Positions 3,160 through 54,271 of a stretch of DNA of 64,000 bases are shown one piece after another. Position numbers and translations under genes: made by a program. This DNA comes from Dehalococcoidia bacterium UBA2247 (GTDB lineage Bacteria; Chloroflexota; Dehalococcoidia; UBA2247): NCBI GenBank assembly GCA_002347295.1, contig DDXZ01000030.1:45216-109215 (forward strand), read 5' to 3'. Numbering within the stretch: the first letter of the stretch is position 1; each line of letters opens with the position of its first letter. The notes under the pieces were generated by a model. That model made no database searches. It saw only the letters and a program-made list of their open reading frames with translations, and had not been told where the DNA came from.

Positions 3160-4047
3160 TTGAAATATTATTTGTTATCTTGCAAAGTAGACGGTAAAAC
3201 ACAAGCTACTATTGATACCTATCAAATGCGGCTAGGGCTGTTTGTTGAATTCGCCCAGGGTAATGGCTTTTCCATGACGGATCAGCTTACCGGGAATAAT
3301 ATCCGGATGTTTCTCTTATCGCTCAATGACCGGCATTTACAGCCGGCAACGATCCATGCTTATCATCGGGCACTCCGGACCTGGTTCACCTGGTTGGTAA
3401 ACGAAGGTTTCTTGGAGAAAACCCCGATGCAGAATATCAAGCCACCGCGACTACCCAAGAAGATTCCTCATCCTTTCAGCACGCAGGATCTGGAGAATTT
3501 ATTGCTGCTTACCTCAGGACATCACTTTGTCAATATCCGGAACCGTGCTATAATCCTCGCATTCCTCGATACCGGTCTCAGATTAAATGAGTTACTCAAT
3601 ATCAATCTTGTTGACATAAGTACAGAATACGATACAATTAGAGTATTCGGTAAAGGTAGCAAAGAGCGTATTGTTTCCCTAGGGAAAGTATCACGAAAGG
3701 CCTTTTTGAAATACCTTATGTTGAGAAGTGACAGATATCCTAATTTTTGGGTTACTGAGGAAAGACGTCCGCTGCAGAGGGACGGGCTACGCATTATTAT
3801 CCGGAGGCTTTGTGAAAGAGCAAACATTACGGATGCAAAATATGGCGCCCATACTTTCAGACATACCTTCGCAACGAACTCAATTCGCAACGGAGCCAAT
3901 ACCTTCTTTGTATAAAGCTTGCTGGGGCATTCCACTCTGGAAATGACCAGGCGATATGCTGGGATGATAAACTCGGAAACAGCAATTGAAAAGCATAATG
4001 AATTCAGTCCTGCGGATAGACTATTTAAGGTAGAGTATCTCTTATGA
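3160..4047 (+). pseudogene. tyrosine recombinase/phage-type integrase interrupted by an in-frame TAA (3913-3915)
   Basis: An N-terminal core-binding region is followed by catalytic motifs (HTFRHTF ... LLGHSTLEMTRRYAGM with the catalytic Tyr). The single TAA separates '...GANTFFV' from 'SLLGHS...' and sits where Gln is conserved. The reading frame is otherwise continuous to TGA at 4045-4047. Confidence 0.7.
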
Positions 4048-4107
4048 ATTAATAGCTGGTAATAATTATGTCTTAGTGGCTGACAGTATTTATTACAAGG
4101 TTAGATA

Positions 4108-4524
4108 ATGAATTACGATTACGACATCTTCGAGGATCTTTATGAGGAGGAATCTCCCGAGGGACGTCCGCGGGATGTAAAAATTGATGAAGCTAGAGCG
4201 AGTTTAGAGAAATTTTTTAATCAACAGGACAGAGAAGTATTCCATGGGAAACAAGTAGAAGTATTATTTGAAAAGACATTCTTTCATTGGATTACAAGCA
4301 AAGCATTAGATGAGATGGTAAAAGAAGGAAAAATTATAGGGTCAGAAGAAATGCCTTTATTAGGAAAAACTAGAGTAAAGTTCGTATTTAACAAAAAATA
4401 TAGGGACCGTAAACTAGAAATGAGAGATCATCTGAGGGTTGTTCGTGGATATTCTACACCACCGTTACCCGGTGATTGTGGTAGACAAGCAGAAATAATG
4501 TTCGAGAAATGCTTTGGCTGGTAG
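4108..4524 (+). CDS. hypothetical protein (island cargo)
   Basis: 138-aa ORF with an acidic N-terminus and no recognisable motif. It overlaps the next ORF by 11 nt. Confidence 0.35.
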   Translation: MNYDYDIFEDLYEEESPEGRPRDVKIDEARASLEKFFNQQDREVFHGKQVEVLFEKTFFHWITSKALDEMVKEGKIIGSEEMPLLGKTRVKFVFNKKYRDRKLEMRDHLRVVRGYSTPPLPGDCGRQAEIMFEKCFGW

Positions 4525-4963
4525 AGGTTTTAAGATATGTGGGGAGAAAGTGAAGGAGTACAAAGGGAAAAAGTGGGATAAAACAAATAACGACTTAGAT
4601 TTTGTAGTGGAAAGGGATGGGGTTACTTACGGTAGTGAAGTAAAAAATACGTGGAGTTATATAAACAGAGATGAGATGATTGTGAAATTGGACATGTGCA
4701 AATATTTTGGGGTGAGACCATTATTCATAATGAGAGGATCACCAAAAAGCTATAACTGGGAAATTAAAAGATGGGGTGGGTATGCTATGATATTTGTAGC
4801 ACAAATTTATCCATTGTCCCAGGGGATGGTGGTGAAAGAGATAAAAGAGAAACTAGGGTTGGAAGCAGATTGTCCAAGGGCAATACCGAGTGGGATAATA
4901 GATAGGTTCATTAACTGGGAAAAGGATAATTTGGGGGATATTAAAAAAAATCCTCAATATTGA
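4514..4963 (+). CDS. hypothetical protein with a PD-(D/E)xK-like nuclease motif
   Basis: The start is TTG. The segment 'DLDFVVERDGVTYGSEVKN' fits the D...(D/E)xK spacing of restriction-endonuclease-fold nucleases. The frame is blocked upstream by TAA at 4496-4498, so it is a separate or frameshift-fused ORF. Confidence 0.35.
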   Translation: MAGRGFKICGEKVKEYKGKKWDKTNNDLDFVVERDGVTYGSEVKNTWSYINRDEMIVKLDMCKYFGVRPLFIMRGSPKSYNWEIKRWGGYAMIFVAQIYPLSQGMVVKEIKEKLGLEADCPRAIPSGIIDRFINWEKDNLGDIKKNPQY

Positions 4964-5062
4964 GGGTAGAATAGGCACAGAAATTGGTACCCCTATGAAT
5001 ACTAATTTGTCTAGTAAATATACTGAAATAGCTATTGACAAGATGTCAACTTATAGATTAAC

Positions 5063-5442
5063 ATGAAACTGAAACAGGTAAAAAACGGTATAATATTTAA
5101 TATTTTCGCTATCATACTAGATAATGGTGTATGTCCGGTTGAAGAATTTCTTGAGCAGTTAAAAATAAATGACCCATCTTCGCTTAAATCATTCGTTACC
5201 ATATTCAATAGGCATGCAGATCATGGTTCTTTGCGAAACGAAAAAAGTCTAAAGTTCTTAAAGATAGAGAGAATTTACTAGAGTTTAAAACCGATCATGG
5301 GGATAGAATAATGTATTTTTATTTGCCAGGTAAAATGACAGTTTTAACACACGGATTTCATAAAGGTGCACCAGAGTCTCAAGAATATGATAGGGCTGAA
5401 TCAATAAGAGACCGCTATTGTCAGGAGATTAAAAATGGTTAG
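5063..5442 (+). pseudogene. HigB/Gp49-like (RelE/ParE superfamily) toxin, frameshifted at an A6 tract (5241-5246)
   Basis: The N-terminal 72-aa ORF and the +2-frame continuation 'ENLLEFKTDHGDRIMYFYLPGKMTVLTHGFHKGAPESQEYDRAESI' together match the Gp49/HigB toxin pattern. Inserting one A in the A6 run restores a ~126-aa protein. Confidence 0.6.
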
Positions 5443-5812
5443 CAGTGATGCAGAATTAATTTTAGAGAAATACTCAAATGAATATGCCAAGGATCCCGAT
5501 TTTATAGCAGAGGGACTTGCAGTTAAAATAACGGAGGAAATGCTTGAATGCCTCGAGAAAAGGGGCCTCAATCAGTCTTGGTTGGCAGAGAAGATGGGTG
5601 TTTCAAGAGAACGCATTTCTCGTATACTTAATGCAAAGCCGAACATGACTCTATTAACCATTGCTAAAATCGCAGTCGCGCTCGATGTGCAACCTGATGT
5701 TTGCCTTAATGCTTGGGATCTAAGATTAATACAAGCTGATTCTGACATACAATCTCAAAAACCTGCCGATATATGGACAGCAAGCGATCTCATGTTTTCC
5801 GAGATACCATAA
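5435..5812 (+). CDS. HTH XRE-family antitoxin (HigA-like)
   Basis: The helix-turn-helix 'WLAEKMGVSRERISRILN' is present. The start overlaps the toxin 3' end by 8 nt, which is typical toxin-antitoxin coupling. Confidence 0.6.
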   Translation: MVSSDAELILEKYSNEYAKDPDFIAEGLAVKITEEMLECLEKRGLNQSWLAEKMGVSRERISRILNAKPNMTLLTIAKIAVALDVQPDVCLNAWDLRLIQADSDIQSQKPADIWTASDLMFSEIP

Positions 5813-5896
5813 CCTGACAAAATAGAATCCGTAACCGCATGAGGAACAGATGAGAATTTACTTGAAACAACAAGAGTAGTTTAGGAGATACTGAAT

Positions 5897-6316
5897 ATGA
5901 AATTATCTGCAAATAATAAAAACATCTTAGTAAAAGAGATTAGAACTGCCGCCGAATACATGAGCAAAGCTAATAATGCTCAGCAAAAAATGTATTTCTT
6001 TAGTGCGGTTTTTGGAATATCCAATCGGCTGATGAATCTTGAATTTGACCCAGAATTAGTCTTCATTCATCATGTCACTGAGAGTACCTTTAAAAACATC
6101 AATACAAATTTGATGATGATGTCACAAGGGCAATCTCTTCCCTCTATCCCGCCATCTCTATTTAATAAATTGGAGGATGCTCTCGTTCAGTTAGCTAATT
6201 ATATTGAAGAAGGGAACCCAACTTATCCTGCGCTGGAGAGAATTTCCAACTTATCTTACAGTACATCAGGCAATGGATATTATCTCTTTCTTAAGGGTAT
6301 GCTTAAAATAGATTAA
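5897..6316 (+). CDS. hypothetical protein
   Basis: 139-aa ORF with no recognisable domain. It is co-oriented with the next ORF across a 62-bp gap. Confidence 0.4.
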   Translation: MKLSANNKNILVKEIRTAAEYMSKANNAQQKMYFFSAVFGISNRLMNLEFDPELVFIHHVTESTFKNINTNLMMMSQGQSLPSIPPSLFNKLEDALVQLANYIEEGNPTYPALERISNLSYSTSGNGYYLFLKGMLKID

Positions 6317-6378
6317 TTTTTATCGAGTTTAAGCAGGTTATCAATAAATTGGGAGGATTGTAATAATAGTATAAGCAT

Positions 6379-7215
6379 ATGCCTTCTTTGCATGGGCCCA
6401 GATTGAAGCTTGGCAGGGCAGAGGAACATCTCAGCACCATCAAGGCGATTATTCAGAGATTCCTCGAATCTAATCCCTATTCCTTTATTCTCCAACCTAA
6501 TCCTAATCCCCCGGATTATGTCCTCCGCGCTAACATTAACCAAGTTCCTCCGATTCAACTGTCTTGCATTGTCGGTGATTTCGCTCACAATGCTCGCTCT
6601 GCTCTCGACCTGCTGGTCTATCAACTCAGTGACCTCGTAGAAGGGGATAAAAATAGACTTAAACTGCAATTCCCGATTTTTAATAATGCTGTCGATTATT
6701 CCAAAAATGAAAAGGCTTATCTAAGCGGAGTCAAACCTGAATATAAGACAATTATTGAGAGGCATCAACCTTACAAGAGACCTCAACGGGATGGAAGTGA
6801 TGCTCTTACAATCCTCCAAAGCATCAACAATACAGATAAACATCGTCTTATCAATGTCGTTGGTGCGATTGCCAACTTGGACTATTTTAATTTCGATAGT
6901 TCCAGTGGATTGCCCGACAATATCAAGCTCGAAGCAGGAGCTCATATTAGAGTTGGACAAAGCTTTAATTTTGGTAATGGATTCACTGGTAGTAAGATTG
7001 GGAATGGGGCAATAACCAAAGACAATGCAATAGTCGCCAAACTGACTATCCCGCAACCCGAAAAAGTGAAGGTGACTCCGGACTATCATGTCGCGATACA
7101 ATTTTATGTAACTGACCAAACGGTTAATGGACGCCCGGTAGTGGATACACTAACGCTCATCTATGATGGTGTAAACGAAATTATTAGGGATTTCGAGCCG
7201 TTCTTTCATAAGTGA
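6379..7215 (+). CDS. hypothetical protein
   Basis: 278-aa ORF in a clean long frame with no motif I can place. It is island cargo lying next to an IS. Confidence 0.45.
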   Translation: MPSLHGPRLKLGRAEEHLSTIKAIIQRFLESNPYSFILQPNPNPPDYVLRANINQVPPIQLSCIVGDFAHNARSALDLLVYQLSDLVEGDKNRLKLQFPIFNNAVDYSKNEKAYLSGVKPEYKTIIERHQPYKRPQRDGSDALTILQSINNTDKHRLINVVGAIANLDYFNFDSSSGLPDNIKLEAGAHIRVGQSFNFGNGFTGSKIGNGAITKDNAIVAKLTIPQPEKVKVTPDYHVAIQFYVTDQTVNGRPVVDTLTLIYDGVNEIIRDFEPFFHK

Positions 7216-7370
7216 TTCTTTCATTTCTCAACCTTATACAAAGATGACATAGTCACTAATATTAAAGAGGGTAATATATGACTAAAAAAACACACTAAAA
7301 CCAAAATACATAAACAAAATCCACGTCGGCAAAATAAAAATACTGATACGGGTAATAAAGACAAACATCT

Positions 7371-8288
7371 CCGTAAATATCCGACATTCTTACTCCTTTT
7401 TCTTAAGTAATGGAGGGATCATACCCAGCCCCATATGGGGACGATGGTAATGATAGTGCTTAAGAAATAATTCTACCATGTTCCGATACTCCGGTAAGTC
7501 CTGGATACGATACGTCTGCCAGCCCAAGCATTCTTTTCTCACTGTCCGGTTAAAACTTTCTATATATGATTGTTCATTCTTACGATATGGATGAGCAATA
7601 CGATGGCGATCACAGAATAAACTTACTTCAGTCTTAAATTCAGCTTTAAACTCTGAGCCGCCATCAGTCTGTAGTAAGTGGACATGTTTATCAAACCTTC
7701 TCTCCCTGCTTTGGTAGAGGAATTCACAGCCATACCTTGCCGTAAGCTGGGATGCTAACAGAATATCGGCTTCTTTACTGAAGATATCTACCGCTGTAAA
7801 GGCATAAAGCTCACCAAAGTCTATCGTGTCCATCTGTATTACCTCCCTGGAATGAGAGGCTACCGGTAAAATCCCACGCACTTTATTCTTTTTCCACTTA
7901 GAACGAAGAACATATTTCTCAGCGAGAATTTCATAAATCCTGGGAACAGATAAGGGAATGCCATAATCATGCTCAAGAAAGTACTGGATTTTTTGTCCGC
8001 AACAATCGTATTCTCGCTCTCTGATGTCCCGTATCCGGCGTTTAATGAGTGGGTCTACCTGTCTTCTCTTACGCTCTCCCTTTTGGGCTTGTGCATAACT
8101 ATTCAAGAATTCCAGTAAACCATACGTTTTGCGGGCATGTATCCAGATGCTTATCGTTTCCCGGTGTTTGCCCATTCTTTGAGCAATATGGGTCATGGGA
8201 ATACATTGCTCATGGAGTTCCCAACATAGAGTAATTAATGTTTCATTTGTCATATCCATATTCTACATAGAATGTCGGATATTTACGG
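7371..8288 (-). mobile_element. IS481-family-like insertion sequence, complete, 918 bp
   Basis: Perfect 20-bp terminal inverted repeats ccgtaaatatccgacattct (7371-7390) and agaatgtcggatatttacgg (8269-8288) flank a single DDE (rve) transposase gene. Confidence 0.7.
7390..8259 (-). CDS. DDE transposase (integrase core/rve domain), IS481-like
   Basis: An HTH N-terminus is followed by the D (IQMDTIDFG), D (QTDGGSEF) and E (ESFNRTVRKE) motifs. Confidence 0.75.
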   Translation of the reverse strand: MDMTNETLITLCWELHEQCIPMTHIAQRMGKHRETISIWIHARKTYGLLEFLNSYAQAQKGERKRRQVDPLIKRRIRDIREREYDCCGQKIQYFLEHDYGIPLSVPRIYEILAEKYVLRSKWKKNKVRGILPVASHSREVIQMDTIDFGELYAFTAVDIFSKEADILLASQLTARYGCEFLYQSRERRFDKHVHLLQTDGGSEFKAEFKTEVSLFCDRHRIAHPYRKNEQSYIESFNRTVRKECLGWQTYRIQDLPEYRNMVELFLKHYHYHRPHMGLGMIPPLLKKKE

Positions 8289-12002: not shown

Positions 12003-12056
12003 CTTCTATTTGATATGGACGGCATTATAACGTTATTTTTATGTCTTTGCAAAGAG

Positions 12057-12094
12057 GGCTCTCTTCCGGTAACATTTTTATTTGAGTTGACACG
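12057..12094. repeat. 38-bp repeat (ggctctcttccggtaacatttttatttgagttgacacg), inverted partner at 25321..25358
   Basis: It is an exact reverse-complement match to 25321..25358. In both copies it is preceded by a short hairpin ending in GCTCTCTT. Confidence 0.7.
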
Positions 12095-25320: not shown

Positions 25321-25358
25321 CGTGTCAACTCAAATAAAAATGTTACCGGAAGAGAGCC
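25321..25358. repeat. 38-bp repeat, inverted copy of 12057..12094, adjacent to the IS5-family remnant
   Basis: Exact reverse-complement identity over 38 bp. It lies between rny and the decayed IS5 transposase. Confidence 0.7.
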
Positions 25359-25513
25359 ATCCCCAGAGGGACTGCTCTCTGGCAACAAAAGTATGACAAG
25401 CGTACCAGTGTCGAGAGAGCTTACTCCGAAGAGAAGGGCAGTCACAAGTTATCCGATCCCCGAGTGAGGGGATTATCTAAGGTCAAGATCCATGTTTATC
25501 TAGCTCTGTGTGC

Positions 25514-26367
25514 TCAGATAATGAAGCACATCGGAGTTGCCGTAACCAAAGGATGGGTTAGACCGGAACCGGTAGCTTGTCCCATCAGAGCTTGAGCGAA
25601 CCTTAAAAAGATAATTCGGTTCTCTCCTGCTATTAGCGGGATCAGGTGGCTTTGTCTTAATGGGCTGATTATGCTGTTGTTAAAGTGCAATATCCTGCTA
25701 AGTTCGCGTCCTCCTGCCACCGTCTTGTCCCATCCAAAAATCTCCTCGACACGCTTGCGTATCCGTTGGCTCACCTGGTATCCGGAATGTCGAGTAGTAC
25801 GTCCGTCCACAATCGAAGTCTCGCGGCGGGCTACGTGTGGTGTGACTGCCATCGAGCGGCAACTTTTAACGAAATCCTTTGTGTCGTAGTTCTTATCTCC
25901 GCCTACGGTGATCCGTCGCTTCCCCGGTACTTTCCTCAGCATCTCAAACGTAGCGTCCCATCTACAGTGAAGTGGTCTTCTGATAACAGCTCGCGGCCTC
26001 TGGCCTCAGCAAGCACCGCCCCAAGAAACTCCCTAGCTATATCGTGCTCCAGCAGTCTCTCTTTGTTCTTGGAGAACACCGAGTTATCAAAGGCCGGGTC
26101 GATGATGTTCATGTCCATAAACCACTTGAATAACAGGTCATACTGAAGCCGCTCACAGAACTGGCGCTCGCTGCGCACCGAGTAAAGCGCCATCAGCAGA
26201 CATGCTTTCAAAAGGTGCTCCGGCGGTATCGATGGACGCCCAGTCTCGGCGTACATGCGCGTAAATGTGGGTGAAAGCTCGGCTAGCGCCTTGTCCACCA
26301 TCGGCTTGATCTTCCGAATCGGGTGGTCCTCAGGAACCAGGTCATTAGCTGTCACCAGACTCAACAT
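25514..26367 (-). pseudogene. IS5-family transposase remnant (N-terminal DUF772-like part and C-terminal DDE part in different frames, internal deletion)
   Basis: ORF 25936..26367 has the InsH-like N-terminus ('...FTVDGTL'). ORF 25514..25942 has the DDE_Tnp_1 C-terminal part. The two frames overlap by 7 nt and the middle of the domain is missing. Confidence 0.6.
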
Positions 26368-26719
26368 CGTTGTTTAACTGTCCGCTTTCCCTCTCATTGT
26401 GGCCTCCGATAATTTCGTTGGACTTAATCTACCACAATTACCGCACGAAGTCAGCTATTTTAAGGAACTTTTTCAACACCCTGTTAGTTACCGGTGATCA
26501 GGAGTTTCACAAATTTTAGCCGGACTGTAACTTGCAGATAGAATGGCTGGTCAACCAATAATTTGTTCTGACCCCAGTAGTGGAAAAACTGGAGCCTCAG
26601 TTGTATTATCAAAGGGGAGGAACGTCATGTGTTCTTTCGCTTAAGTGATTAAATTTTTAACGTGAGGAATTGTCTTCCCCGCTACGGATAAATATAAAAT
26701 ACTTTTACAGGAGTCTTCA

Positions 26720-27846: not shown

Positions 27847-28911
27847 TGATCTCGTTCAGATAGACAACTGACACTATAATAGTGTCATGAAAATAAGATA
27901 TAACATCGTTAAAGGAAGCTATCAATTAAGCAGATTAGCAATTGATCTGTCTAAAGAAGCGCAAGTCAGACTGAGCTGGTTTGATTCCTACCGGAATCAT
28001 CAGTATAACGCCCGCTTAACTTGCCGACACTTCGGGATATCGCCGCAGACCTTTTATCGCTGGCAGAAACGTTATGATCTTCATCATCGCAAAACTCTGG
28101 AAACCCGTTCCCGCCGTCCAAAGAGAGTGCGCCAACCAACCTATACTCTGGCACAGATTGAAGCCGTACGTAAGGTACGAGAATGTTATCCCCACAGAGG
28201 CAAAGACAAACTGGCGGTAGTGCTACGGGCAGCAGGATATGAATTGTCCGTTTCTCTGGCAGGACGCATCATCCCTTATCTCAAGAAACGTAATGTCTTA
28301 CGGGAATCCATAAGACATAAGGTATCCTCACGCAAATACGGAAGACCGGGACATTATGCCGTTCGTAAACCGCAAGAATACCAGGCGAAACTGCCGGCAG
28401 AATTAGTGCAACTGGATACTATGGATATCCCGCCCCTTACCCGGTATCGTCTTGAAACACTTCTCTTCTTACGATGTCGTCTCCCGTTGGAATGTCCTCG
28501 CTATTTACCATCAAGCTCCCGCGGAGAATGCCGCTCTCTTCTGGGATGATATCCCAAAACGTACTCCCCATATCATCAAATCCATACAGAGCGACGGCGG
28601 TAGTGAATTTCAATTCGGTATTCGAAGAGGAATGCCAAAAACGAAAGAGCAAACTCTTCGTTTTACCACTCCGATCACCCCAACTGAACGGAGTAGTGGA
28701 AAGAGCCAATCGTACCCATGCCGAGGAGTTCTATGAAGTCATTGATAGTACCTTTGACCTTGCAAATATCAGACCTGAACTCTTACAATGGGAACAGGTA
28801 AGTAATACTATCCGTCTCAACCAGGACTTGCGTTATCTCACCCCGCAACAGAATCTGGAGAAATATTATAAGAAGGTAATGTGTCACTAATGTACTGAAC
28901 GAGTACATTTA
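27847..28911 (+). mobile_element. rve-type IS (IS481-like), copy 1, transposase frameshifted
   Basis: Terminal sequences TGATCTCGTTCAG... and ...CTGAACGAGTACATTTA are shared with copy 2. The transposase is split over ORFs 27887..28549, 28452..28736 and 28474..28890, with D/D/E motifs LVQLDTMDI, SDGGSEF and VERANRT. Confidence 0.65.
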
Positions 28912-53106: not shown

Positions 53107-54271
53107 TAAATGTACTCGTTCAGTTCATTGGTGACACATTACCTTCTTATAATATTTCTCCAGATTCTGTTGCGGGGTGAGATAACGCAAGTCCTGGTTG
53201 AGACGGATAGTATTACTTACCTGTTCCCATTGTAAGAGTTCAGGTCTGATATTTGCAAGGTCAAAGGTACTATCAATGACTTCATAGAACTCCTCGGCAT
53301 GGGTACGATTGGCTCTTTCCACTGCTCCGTTCAGTTGGGGTGATCGGGGTGGTAAAACGAAGAGTTTGCTCTTTCGTTTTTGGCATTCCTCTTCGAATAC
53401 CGATTGAAATTCACTACCGCCGTCGCTCTGTATGGATTTGATGATATGGGGAGTACGTTTTGGGATATCATCCCGGAAGAGAGCGGCATTCTCCGCGGGA
53501 GCTTGATGGTAAATAGCGAGGACATTCCAACGGGAGACGACATCGTAAGAAGAGAAGTGTTTCAAGACGATACCGGGTAAGGGGCGGGATATCCATAGTA
53601 TCCAGTTGCACTAATTCTCCCGGCAGTTTCGCCTGGTATTCTTGCGGTTTACGAACGGCATAATGTCCCGGTCTTCCGTATTTGCGTGAGGATACCTTAT
53701 GTCTTATGGGTTCCCGTAAGACATTACGTTTCTTGAGATAAGGGATGATGCGTCCTGCCAGAGAAACGGACAATTCATATCCTGCTGCCCGCAGCACTAC
53801 TGCCAGTTTGTCTTTGCCTCTGTGGGGATAACATTCCCGTACCTTACGTACGGCTTCAATCTATGCCAGAGTATAGCAGGGTGTTGAAAAACCTTGTTTT
53901 GGATTAAAAAGGGGTGTTGGCTAGGCACGAATTTTGGATGATTTTCACGCATTTTGCCTTTTTCAACACCCTGATAGGTTGGTTGGCGCACTCTCTTTGG
54001 ATGGCAGGAACGGGTTTCCAGAGTTTTGCGATGATGATAATCATAACGTTTCTGCCAGCGATAAAAGGTCTGCGGCGATATCCCGAAGTGCCGGCAAGTT
54101 AAGCGGGCGTTATACTGATGATTCCGGTAGTAATCAAACCAGCTCAGTCTGACTTGCGCTTCTTTAGACAGAACAATTTCTAATCTGCTTAATTGATAGC
54201 TTCCTATAACGATATTATATCTTATTTTCATGACACTATTATAGTGTCACTTATCTATCTGAACGAGATCA
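53107..54271 (-). mobile_element. rve-type IS (IS481-like), copy 2, inverted relative to copy 1, carrying a MITE insertion
   Basis: It has the same termini and transposase as copy 1 (ORFs 53797..54231, 53468..53797 and 53125..53565 on the minus strand). It is ~101 bp longer because of the insertion at 53877-53973. Confidence 0.65.
53877..53973. mobile_element. MITE-like element (~97 bp) inserted into IS copy 2
   Basis: 15-bp terminal inverted repeats cagggtgttgaaaaa / tttttcaacaccctg are present. It is absent from the otherwise collinear copy 1. The flanking CTAT is duplicated (ccaacCTAT|MITE|CTATactc versus ccaacCTATactc in copy 1). Confidence 0.6.

Follow-up and report, generated by a model that had tools for sequence, protein, structure and literature searches.

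A 97-bp MITE-like element with IS5-family termini in an IS481-like copy of a Chloroflexota contig

The window, that is, the whole 64-kb stretch of DNA analysed here, carries two ~1.06-kb copies of an IS481-like element, inverted relative to each other, which were delimited by a window-wide repeat search and a MAFFT alignment (Table 1). Copy 2 contains a short additional sequence. What this sequence is, how it came to lie there and which transposase may have moved it are the questions raised by this locus. It had been described in a first-pass annotation as a ~97-bp insert with 15-bp terminal inverted repeats and a ~67-bp non-coding interior, and its coordinates, termini and interior all proved correct.

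Structure of the insert and of its empty site

The two arms of the 97-bp element are exact reverse complements (15 of 15 positions) with 67 nt between them, and the region 53873-53977 reads, in its context, ...gagtATAG, CAGGGTGTTGAAAAA, the 67-nt interior, TTTTTCAACACCCTG and ATAGgttgg.... The repeat finder stretched the arms to 18 nt at 94% identity, only because the flanking TA/TA also pairs. The 15-mer CAGGGTGTTGAAAAA is found three times in the 64-kb window when up to two mismatches are allowed, while 0.15 occurrences are expected from dinucleotide shuffles and none of 100 shuffles reached three. The element has no coding capacity: no ORF lies wholly within its bounds, and the ORFs crossing it are read-through out of the host IS. 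It shows several of the attributes by which MITEs are recognized, namely a size under ~300 bp, a non-coding sequence, terminal inverted repeats, a target-site duplication with an empty site, and termini identical to those of three ISs (L079, L097 and L098) and of a remnant located in the window, which are described below.

Other identities of the element were also considered. A known RNA was ruled out by the absence of any Rfam match at E ≤ 1. A promoter or terminator role was rejected as well, since the only promoter-like match was weak and did not exceed those of shuffled sequences, and no terminator-like site was present inside the element. Within its interior, the sequence GGGGTGTTGG (53911-53920) repeats the terminal-repeat core GGGTGTTG and is followed by CTAG. 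Its A-run is on the wrong side for a proper internal terminus, and it may be a vestige or a chance occurrence.

In the MAFFT alignment, the sole large difference between the two host copies is a 101-bp gap in copy 1, a length accounted for by the 97-bp insert and an additional ATAG; the remaining differences are 23 substitutions and one 1-nt indel. The arms of the repeat search stop right at the borders of the insert and have 4 nt in common (28141-28144), which are the single ATAG of copy 1, while copy 2 has this motif on both sides of the insert. As the plus-strand ATAG is CTAT on the minus strand, the earlier statements that the site is uninterrupted in copy 1 and that CTAT was duplicated are both borne out. 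The host IS encodes HTH domains and an rve_3 integrase core. The best NCBIfam model for both host ORF fragments is IS481, with 68-72 bits against a cut-off of 224, a low score that is explained by the splitting of the host transposase gene by frameshifts. The insertion site (about codon 85 of the copy-1 ORF) falls within residues 28-184, which are aligned contiguously to this model. Since the copy-1 ORF is unbroken across the site, the uninterrupted state is the ancestral one, and the 97 bp were inserted in copy 2 rather than deleted from copy 1. Together with the composition of the 101-bp gap, this agrees with the earlier proposal that the insertion took place after the two copies had separated.

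A C-run between "DTMDIPP" and "LPGIVLKHFSS" (28440-28460 and 53555-53575) is frameshifted in both host copies alike, which indicates that both transposase genes were already broken, or required recoding, before the insertion. A further nucleotide (A at 28615) is inserted in copy 1 but not in copy 2. The 101-bp insertion adds a frameshift to the transposase gene of copy 2, but its functional cost was probably nil because this gene, like that of copy 1, was already frameshifted. The host copies have diverged unevenly: from the insertion site towards the transposase 5' end (27847-28144 versus 53974-54271), 12 differences were counted over 298 nt (4.0%), against 12 over ~767 nt (1.6%) on the other side (28145-28911 versus 53107-53872), which could result from gene conversion or chance. 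Searches with the copy-1 220-aa ORF, the copy-2 146-aa ORF and the right-edge gene gave no other contig on record with the host IS. Copy 2 adjoins a ribosomal protein S2 gene whose nearest relatives are from MAGs labelled Dehalococcoidia or Chloroflexota; the closest of them with a name is at 73%, and NCBI/JGI/ENA/Logan entries are at 100%. The ORF reading through the insert is also recorded on contig Iso3TCLC_10002495 (126,429 bp) of JGI metagenome 3300002821, where positions are higher by 45213 than those of the window. The contigs related to that of the window are from hydrocarbon metagenomes.

Table 1. Location of the 97-bp element, its host copies, the partner ISs and the related short elements. 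Locations without a locus prefix are window positions, except for the full-length ISs, which are numbered within their own loci.
Feature	Location	Strand	Remarks
97-bp non-autonomous MITE-like element	53877-53973	-	Strand set by the IS-left-end match coming first (16/16 nt, CAGGGTGTTGAAAAAG)
Terminal inverted repeat, CAGGGTGTTGAAAAA	53877-53891	+	Base 16 (C) as at the IS right end
Terminal inverted repeat, CAGGGTGTTGAAAAA on the minus strand (TTTTTCAACACCCTG on the plus strand)	53959-53973	-	Base 16 (G) as at the IS left end
Target-site duplication, left	53873-53876		ATAG (minus strand CTAT)
Target-site duplication, right	53974-53977		ATAG
Host IS481-like copy 2	53107-54271	-	1165 bp including the insert; transposase ORF interrupted near codon 85 by the 101-bp insertion
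Host IS481-like copy 1	27847-28911	+	1065 bp; empty site is the single ATAG at 28141-28144
Dead IS5-family partner remnant	25698-26483	-	IS positions 1-532 and 805-1066 kept, 95-96% identity to full-length L079
Left terminal repeat of the IS5 remnant	26469-26483	-	Identical to the termini of the 97-bp element; TTAG at 26484-26487
Full-length IS, L079	86-1425		Both termini CAGGGTGTTGAAAAA unchanged; CTAG duplication
Full-length IS, L097	187-1527		Both termini CAGGGTGTTGAAAAA unchanged; CTAG duplication
Full-length IS, L081	2914-4233		One-change variant CAGGGTGCTGAAAAA at each end; CTAG duplication
IS, L098			Both termini unchanged; flanks mismatched (CTAA/CTAG)
Group A MITE family	L003-L078, e.g. 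L015:2089-2176, L018:1595-1682
97-98-bp AT-rich family	L019:4030-4127, L027:3290-3387, L082:412-509, L086:989-1085
97-98-bp AT-rich family	L089:1812-1909, L090:958-1055, L092:2129-2226, L094:1610-1707

The partner element of the IS5 family

In the window, the terminus is found for a third time at the 5' end of an IS5-family remnant that encodes the N-terminus of a DUF772 transposase and a DDE C-terminal fragment. When the full-length IS of locus L079 was compared to the window by BLAST, its positions 1-532 matched 26483-25952 with 95.3% identity and its positions 805-1066 matched 25959-25698 with 96.2% identity. IS positions 533-804 are deleted in the remnant, at an 8-nt overlap (microhomology), the last 274 bp of the IS are absent, including the right terminus, and a stop has replaced codon 8 (CAA to TAA). 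A 41-nt repeat (GAGGGCTCTCTTCCGGTAACATTTTTATTTGAGTTGACACG) is found twice in the window, inverted and with 98% identity, at 12054-12094 and 25321-25361; the latter copy is intergenic, upstream of an RNase Y gene, and adjoins the IS5 remnant.

A protein search gave thousands of relatives, the best of which have 367 aa and contain DUF772, DDE_Tnp_1 and DDE_Tnp_1_6. Such 367-aa relatives are mostly located on 1.3-1.6-kb contigs, a size typical of repeated ISs in short-read assemblies. Six loci encoding transposases of this type were inspected. The complete ISs of L079, L097 and L081 are 1320-1341 bp long (family size ~1.34 kb), and full-length relatives from other metagenomes have 95-96% DNA identity to the window remnant. 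The 367-aa transposase P0001, with the same three Pfam domains, passes the NCBIfam model NF033581 (IS5 family, transpos_IS5_4) with 254 bits for a cut-off of 140. The nearest named relative in PLSDB is ISAzs10 from Azospirillum sp. B510 (56% identity), whose ends are CAGGCCGCGGAAAAAGG...CCTTTTTCCGCGTCCTG, flanked by TTAG on each side. A literature search for the terminus sequence found no paper containing it, and none on ISAzs10.

The first-pass annotation had anticipated that an autonomous partner sharing these repeats would identify a transposon family currently active in this genome. A partner was indeed found, as the IS5-family remnant in the window and as intact full-length ISs elsewhere; two of the latter (L079 and L097) combine unchanged termini, CTAG duplications and a 367-aa transposase. 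The proposed current activity in this genome finds no support in the window, where the sole partner copy is dead.

Two further regions of the contig carry genes related to mobile elements. At 1.4 kb to the left of window position 1 (L100:6142-7008) is a different IS5-family transposase gene, whose 288-aa product contains DUF772, DDE_Tnp_1 and DDE_Tnp_1_3, and which is missing at the matching position in the related ENA contig L101. Beside it, at about L100:7110-7140, a short sequence resembles the end of the IS481-like host element (GTGTCACTAATGTACTGAACGA). For the window region ~3226-8260 (L100:11666-16699), the precomputed Pfam annotation gives a phage-integrase-family gene and, after it, several small ORFs with no Pfam hits, an HTH_3 protein gene and an rve/rve_3 gene; the region may be another integrated element.

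Distribution of the terminus and origin of the body

A scan of GTDB, with one genome per species, for GGTGTTGAAAAA-N52-82-TTTTTCAACACC returned 76 loci that fall into two groups (A and B), and 13 more loci came from JGI metagenomes, which were scanned for the exact termini. Group B has the exact termini of the window element (CAGGGTGTTGAAAAA...CCCTG) and is hosted by MAGs labelled Fibrobacteria, Verrucomicrobiia, Pirellulales, Polyangiaceae, delta proteobacterium and others. It comprises 20 distinct elements of 85-110 bp, one of which runs off a contig end. Perfect 4-bp duplications with a central TA were observed for 17 of the 19 elements with both flanks readable: CTAA/TTAG in ten, TTAA in three, CTAG in two and CTAT/ATAG in two, the window element and L050. 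IS5 itself generates 4-bp YTAR duplications (PMC5009759), as do 15 of these 17 elements. The duplication of the window element has the same 4-bp length as those of the full-length partner copies and keeps the central TA, but departs from the YTAR consensus at one outer position, a one-base departure that is also that of L050.

The 67-bp body was not found a second time in the window, the extra 8.4 kb of contig, the 76 genome loci, the 13 metagenome loci, IMG/VR or the PLSDB plasmids. The 72 kb of contig that were read contain one copy of the 97-bp element, and the terminus does not recur in the extra 8.4 kb upstream of the window. When the element was compared by BLAST to the window and to all the loci inspected, only the termini matched. 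Within group B, a 97-98-bp AT-rich family, from a Verrucomicrobiia MAG and several JGI metagenomes, has the exact window termini and 4-bp central-TA duplications; L088, L093 and L085 are related to it more distantly, as judged by the profile score. Against this family, the window body gave z = 2.9 (profile) and ~5 (versus L088) with mononucleotide shuffles. With dinucleotide-preserving shuffles, the profile score was 18.4 for a null of 13.6 ± 4.1 and 137 of 1000 shuffles scored as well, while the best pairs were equalled by 17 and 23 of 1000, values uncorrected for ~40 comparisons. Homology of the body to the 97-98-bp family was rejected, as the signal was gone under these shuffles, and the 67-bp body is treated as an orphan on the basis of these comparisons. 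At least four body types are associated with the terminus: the 97-98-bp AT-rich family, a GC-rich family from Fibrobacteria MAGs, several singletons and the window orphan.

The body was also compared to the partner IS. Over the first 60 nt of each IS end, the 97-bp element is identical at nt 1-15 and nothing convincing is found further in. Base 16 differs between the two ends of the IS, being G on the left and C on the right, and the 97-bp element carries one end of each type, so that the match extends to 16 nt at each end when this asymmetric base is included. Local alignments of the 67-bp body with both IS ends and with the whole IS were no better than shuffles, and a derivation of the body by deletion from the partner IS was rejected because the similarity stops after 16 nt. 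These results bear on the possibility that a full-length IS5-family element inserted here with its duplication and later lost its interior, the 97 bp never having moved alone. The single known copy of the element would fit such an in-situ deletion, as would the internal deletion at an 8-nt microhomology of the partner IS in the window. However, the close full-length relatives and the remnant have well-conserved sub-terminal sequences (45 nt on either side), whereas the 97-bp element matches nt 1-16 only. Its body being unlike the partner IS beyond 16 nt per end, the element is no simple or recent product of internal deletion, which speaks against its formation in situ. Moreover, the many 85-110-bp elements with these termini lie at unrelated loci with their own duplications, and thus small units with these ends do move. 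An in-situ deletion is therefore considered improbable.

Group A has the termini GAGGGTGTTGAAAAA...TTTTTCAACACCCTC, a size of ~90 bp and mostly 6-8-bp duplications, and is found dozens of times in a small number of Chloroflexota MAGs (Ardenticatenia Nak82, Anaerolineae H106_27, PO_14 and KM4338-58). It is a different MITE family from the window element, despite its nearly equal terminus. This second family illustrates that similar ends can belong to different systems, and the window element could likewise be mobilized by a different, unseen transposase, its termini merely resembling those of the IS5 family; the 288-aa IS5-family gene just outside the window would also be compatible with this. 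Against it stand the exact 16-nt match at both ends to the IS with the 367-aa transposase, left/right asymmetry included, and the 4-bp central-TA duplication, which fits the same IS. The odds of a separate transposase appear slimmer still than those of an in-situ deletion.

Finally, a deletion in copy 1 without inverted-repeat or duplication structure, which the first-pass annotation had named as the alternative, or a chance palindrome or structural hairpin (REP- or terminator-like) that has nothing to do with transposition, is effectively refuted: the single-stranded element does form a long hairpin in which the terminal repeats pair to close it (-18.3 kcal/mol, z = -3.75), but this energy simply reflects the 15-bp repeat, the gap coincides exactly with the inverted-repeat boundaries and one 4-bp direct repeat, copy 1 aligns to the IS481 model without a break at this point, a transposase-bearing IS has the very same termini, and the element has neither Rfam matches nor a terminator-like site.

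Proposed mobilization and comparison with known systems

Taken together, these features suggest that the 97-bp insert is very probably a non-autonomous MITE-like derivative of the ISAzs10-like clade of the IS5 family, mobilized in trans into copy 2 after the two host copies had separated. In the mechanism that we infer, the 367-aa DDE transposase of the ~1.34-kb IS would recognize the 15-bp repeats of the element (16 bp with the asymmetric base) and would be supplied in trans by a full-length IS copy. It would bind both termini and, as established for DDE and IS5 transposition, transfer the 3' ends to a 4-bp staggered cut. The target would have been the central-TA site CTAT inside the transposase gene of the IS481-like copy 2, and repair of the stagger would have produced the ATAG/ATAG duplication, presumably at a time when the host copies were already apart. 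Four points count against this explanation: no second copy of the body in the collections searched, a body unlike the IS interior, an inactive sole partner copy, and a CTAT duplication that is not strictly YTAR.

A broader and more tentative possibility, to which we give less credit than to its converse, is that the terminus CAGGGTGTTGAAAAA marks a set of 85-110-bp elements that crosses phyla, has bodies unrelated to one another and would be serviced by one IS5 clade, the window element being a recently born MITE whose body did not come from the IS. If true, it would be evidence for repeated de novo genesis of MITEs rather than deletion of a parent IS. The locus itself records one transposition event, tied to a specific IS5 clade; the uncultured organism that carries it is from a hydrocarbon-associated metagenome. 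It is of use for the annotation of this contig and for the cataloguing of Chloroflexota MITEs, and leaves the understanding of such elements unchanged. The occurrence of many short elements with one terminus in MAGs of differing lineage labels may be of interest to curators of IS and MITE databases.

The window element shares with the ISAzs10-like clade of the IS5 family the CAGG-N6-AAAAAG terminal architecture and 4-bp central-TA duplications, which are CTAG and TTAG in the clade. It differs in that its CTAT is not a strict YTAR and in that the partner encodes a DUF772 and DDE_Tnp_1 transposase, whereas the element has no transposase and only 16 nt per end in common with it. The 97-98-bp elements with CAGGGTGTTGAAAAA (L019, L027, L082, L083, L086, L089-L092 and L094) resemble it in termini, length and 4-bp central-TA duplications, but not in their bodies, whose similarity is not significant when dinucleotide composition is controlled. 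Bacterial MITEs derived from IS5-family elements are known, such as the Correia elements of Neisseria and the Chunjie elements of Geobacter. No sequence relation of the window element to any named MITE was found in the literature search. While families of IS5-derived bacterial MITEs are defined by many copies per genome, one copy is documented here. As in the case of the Porphyromonas gingivalis MITE (PMC4596501), the window element is small, encodes nothing and has the terminal inverted repeats of an IS together with the type of duplication that this IS makes, and IS5-derived MITEs can insert into genes or other mobile elements. The 97-bp element is thus a real, cleanly delimited and ordinary example of a well-known kind.
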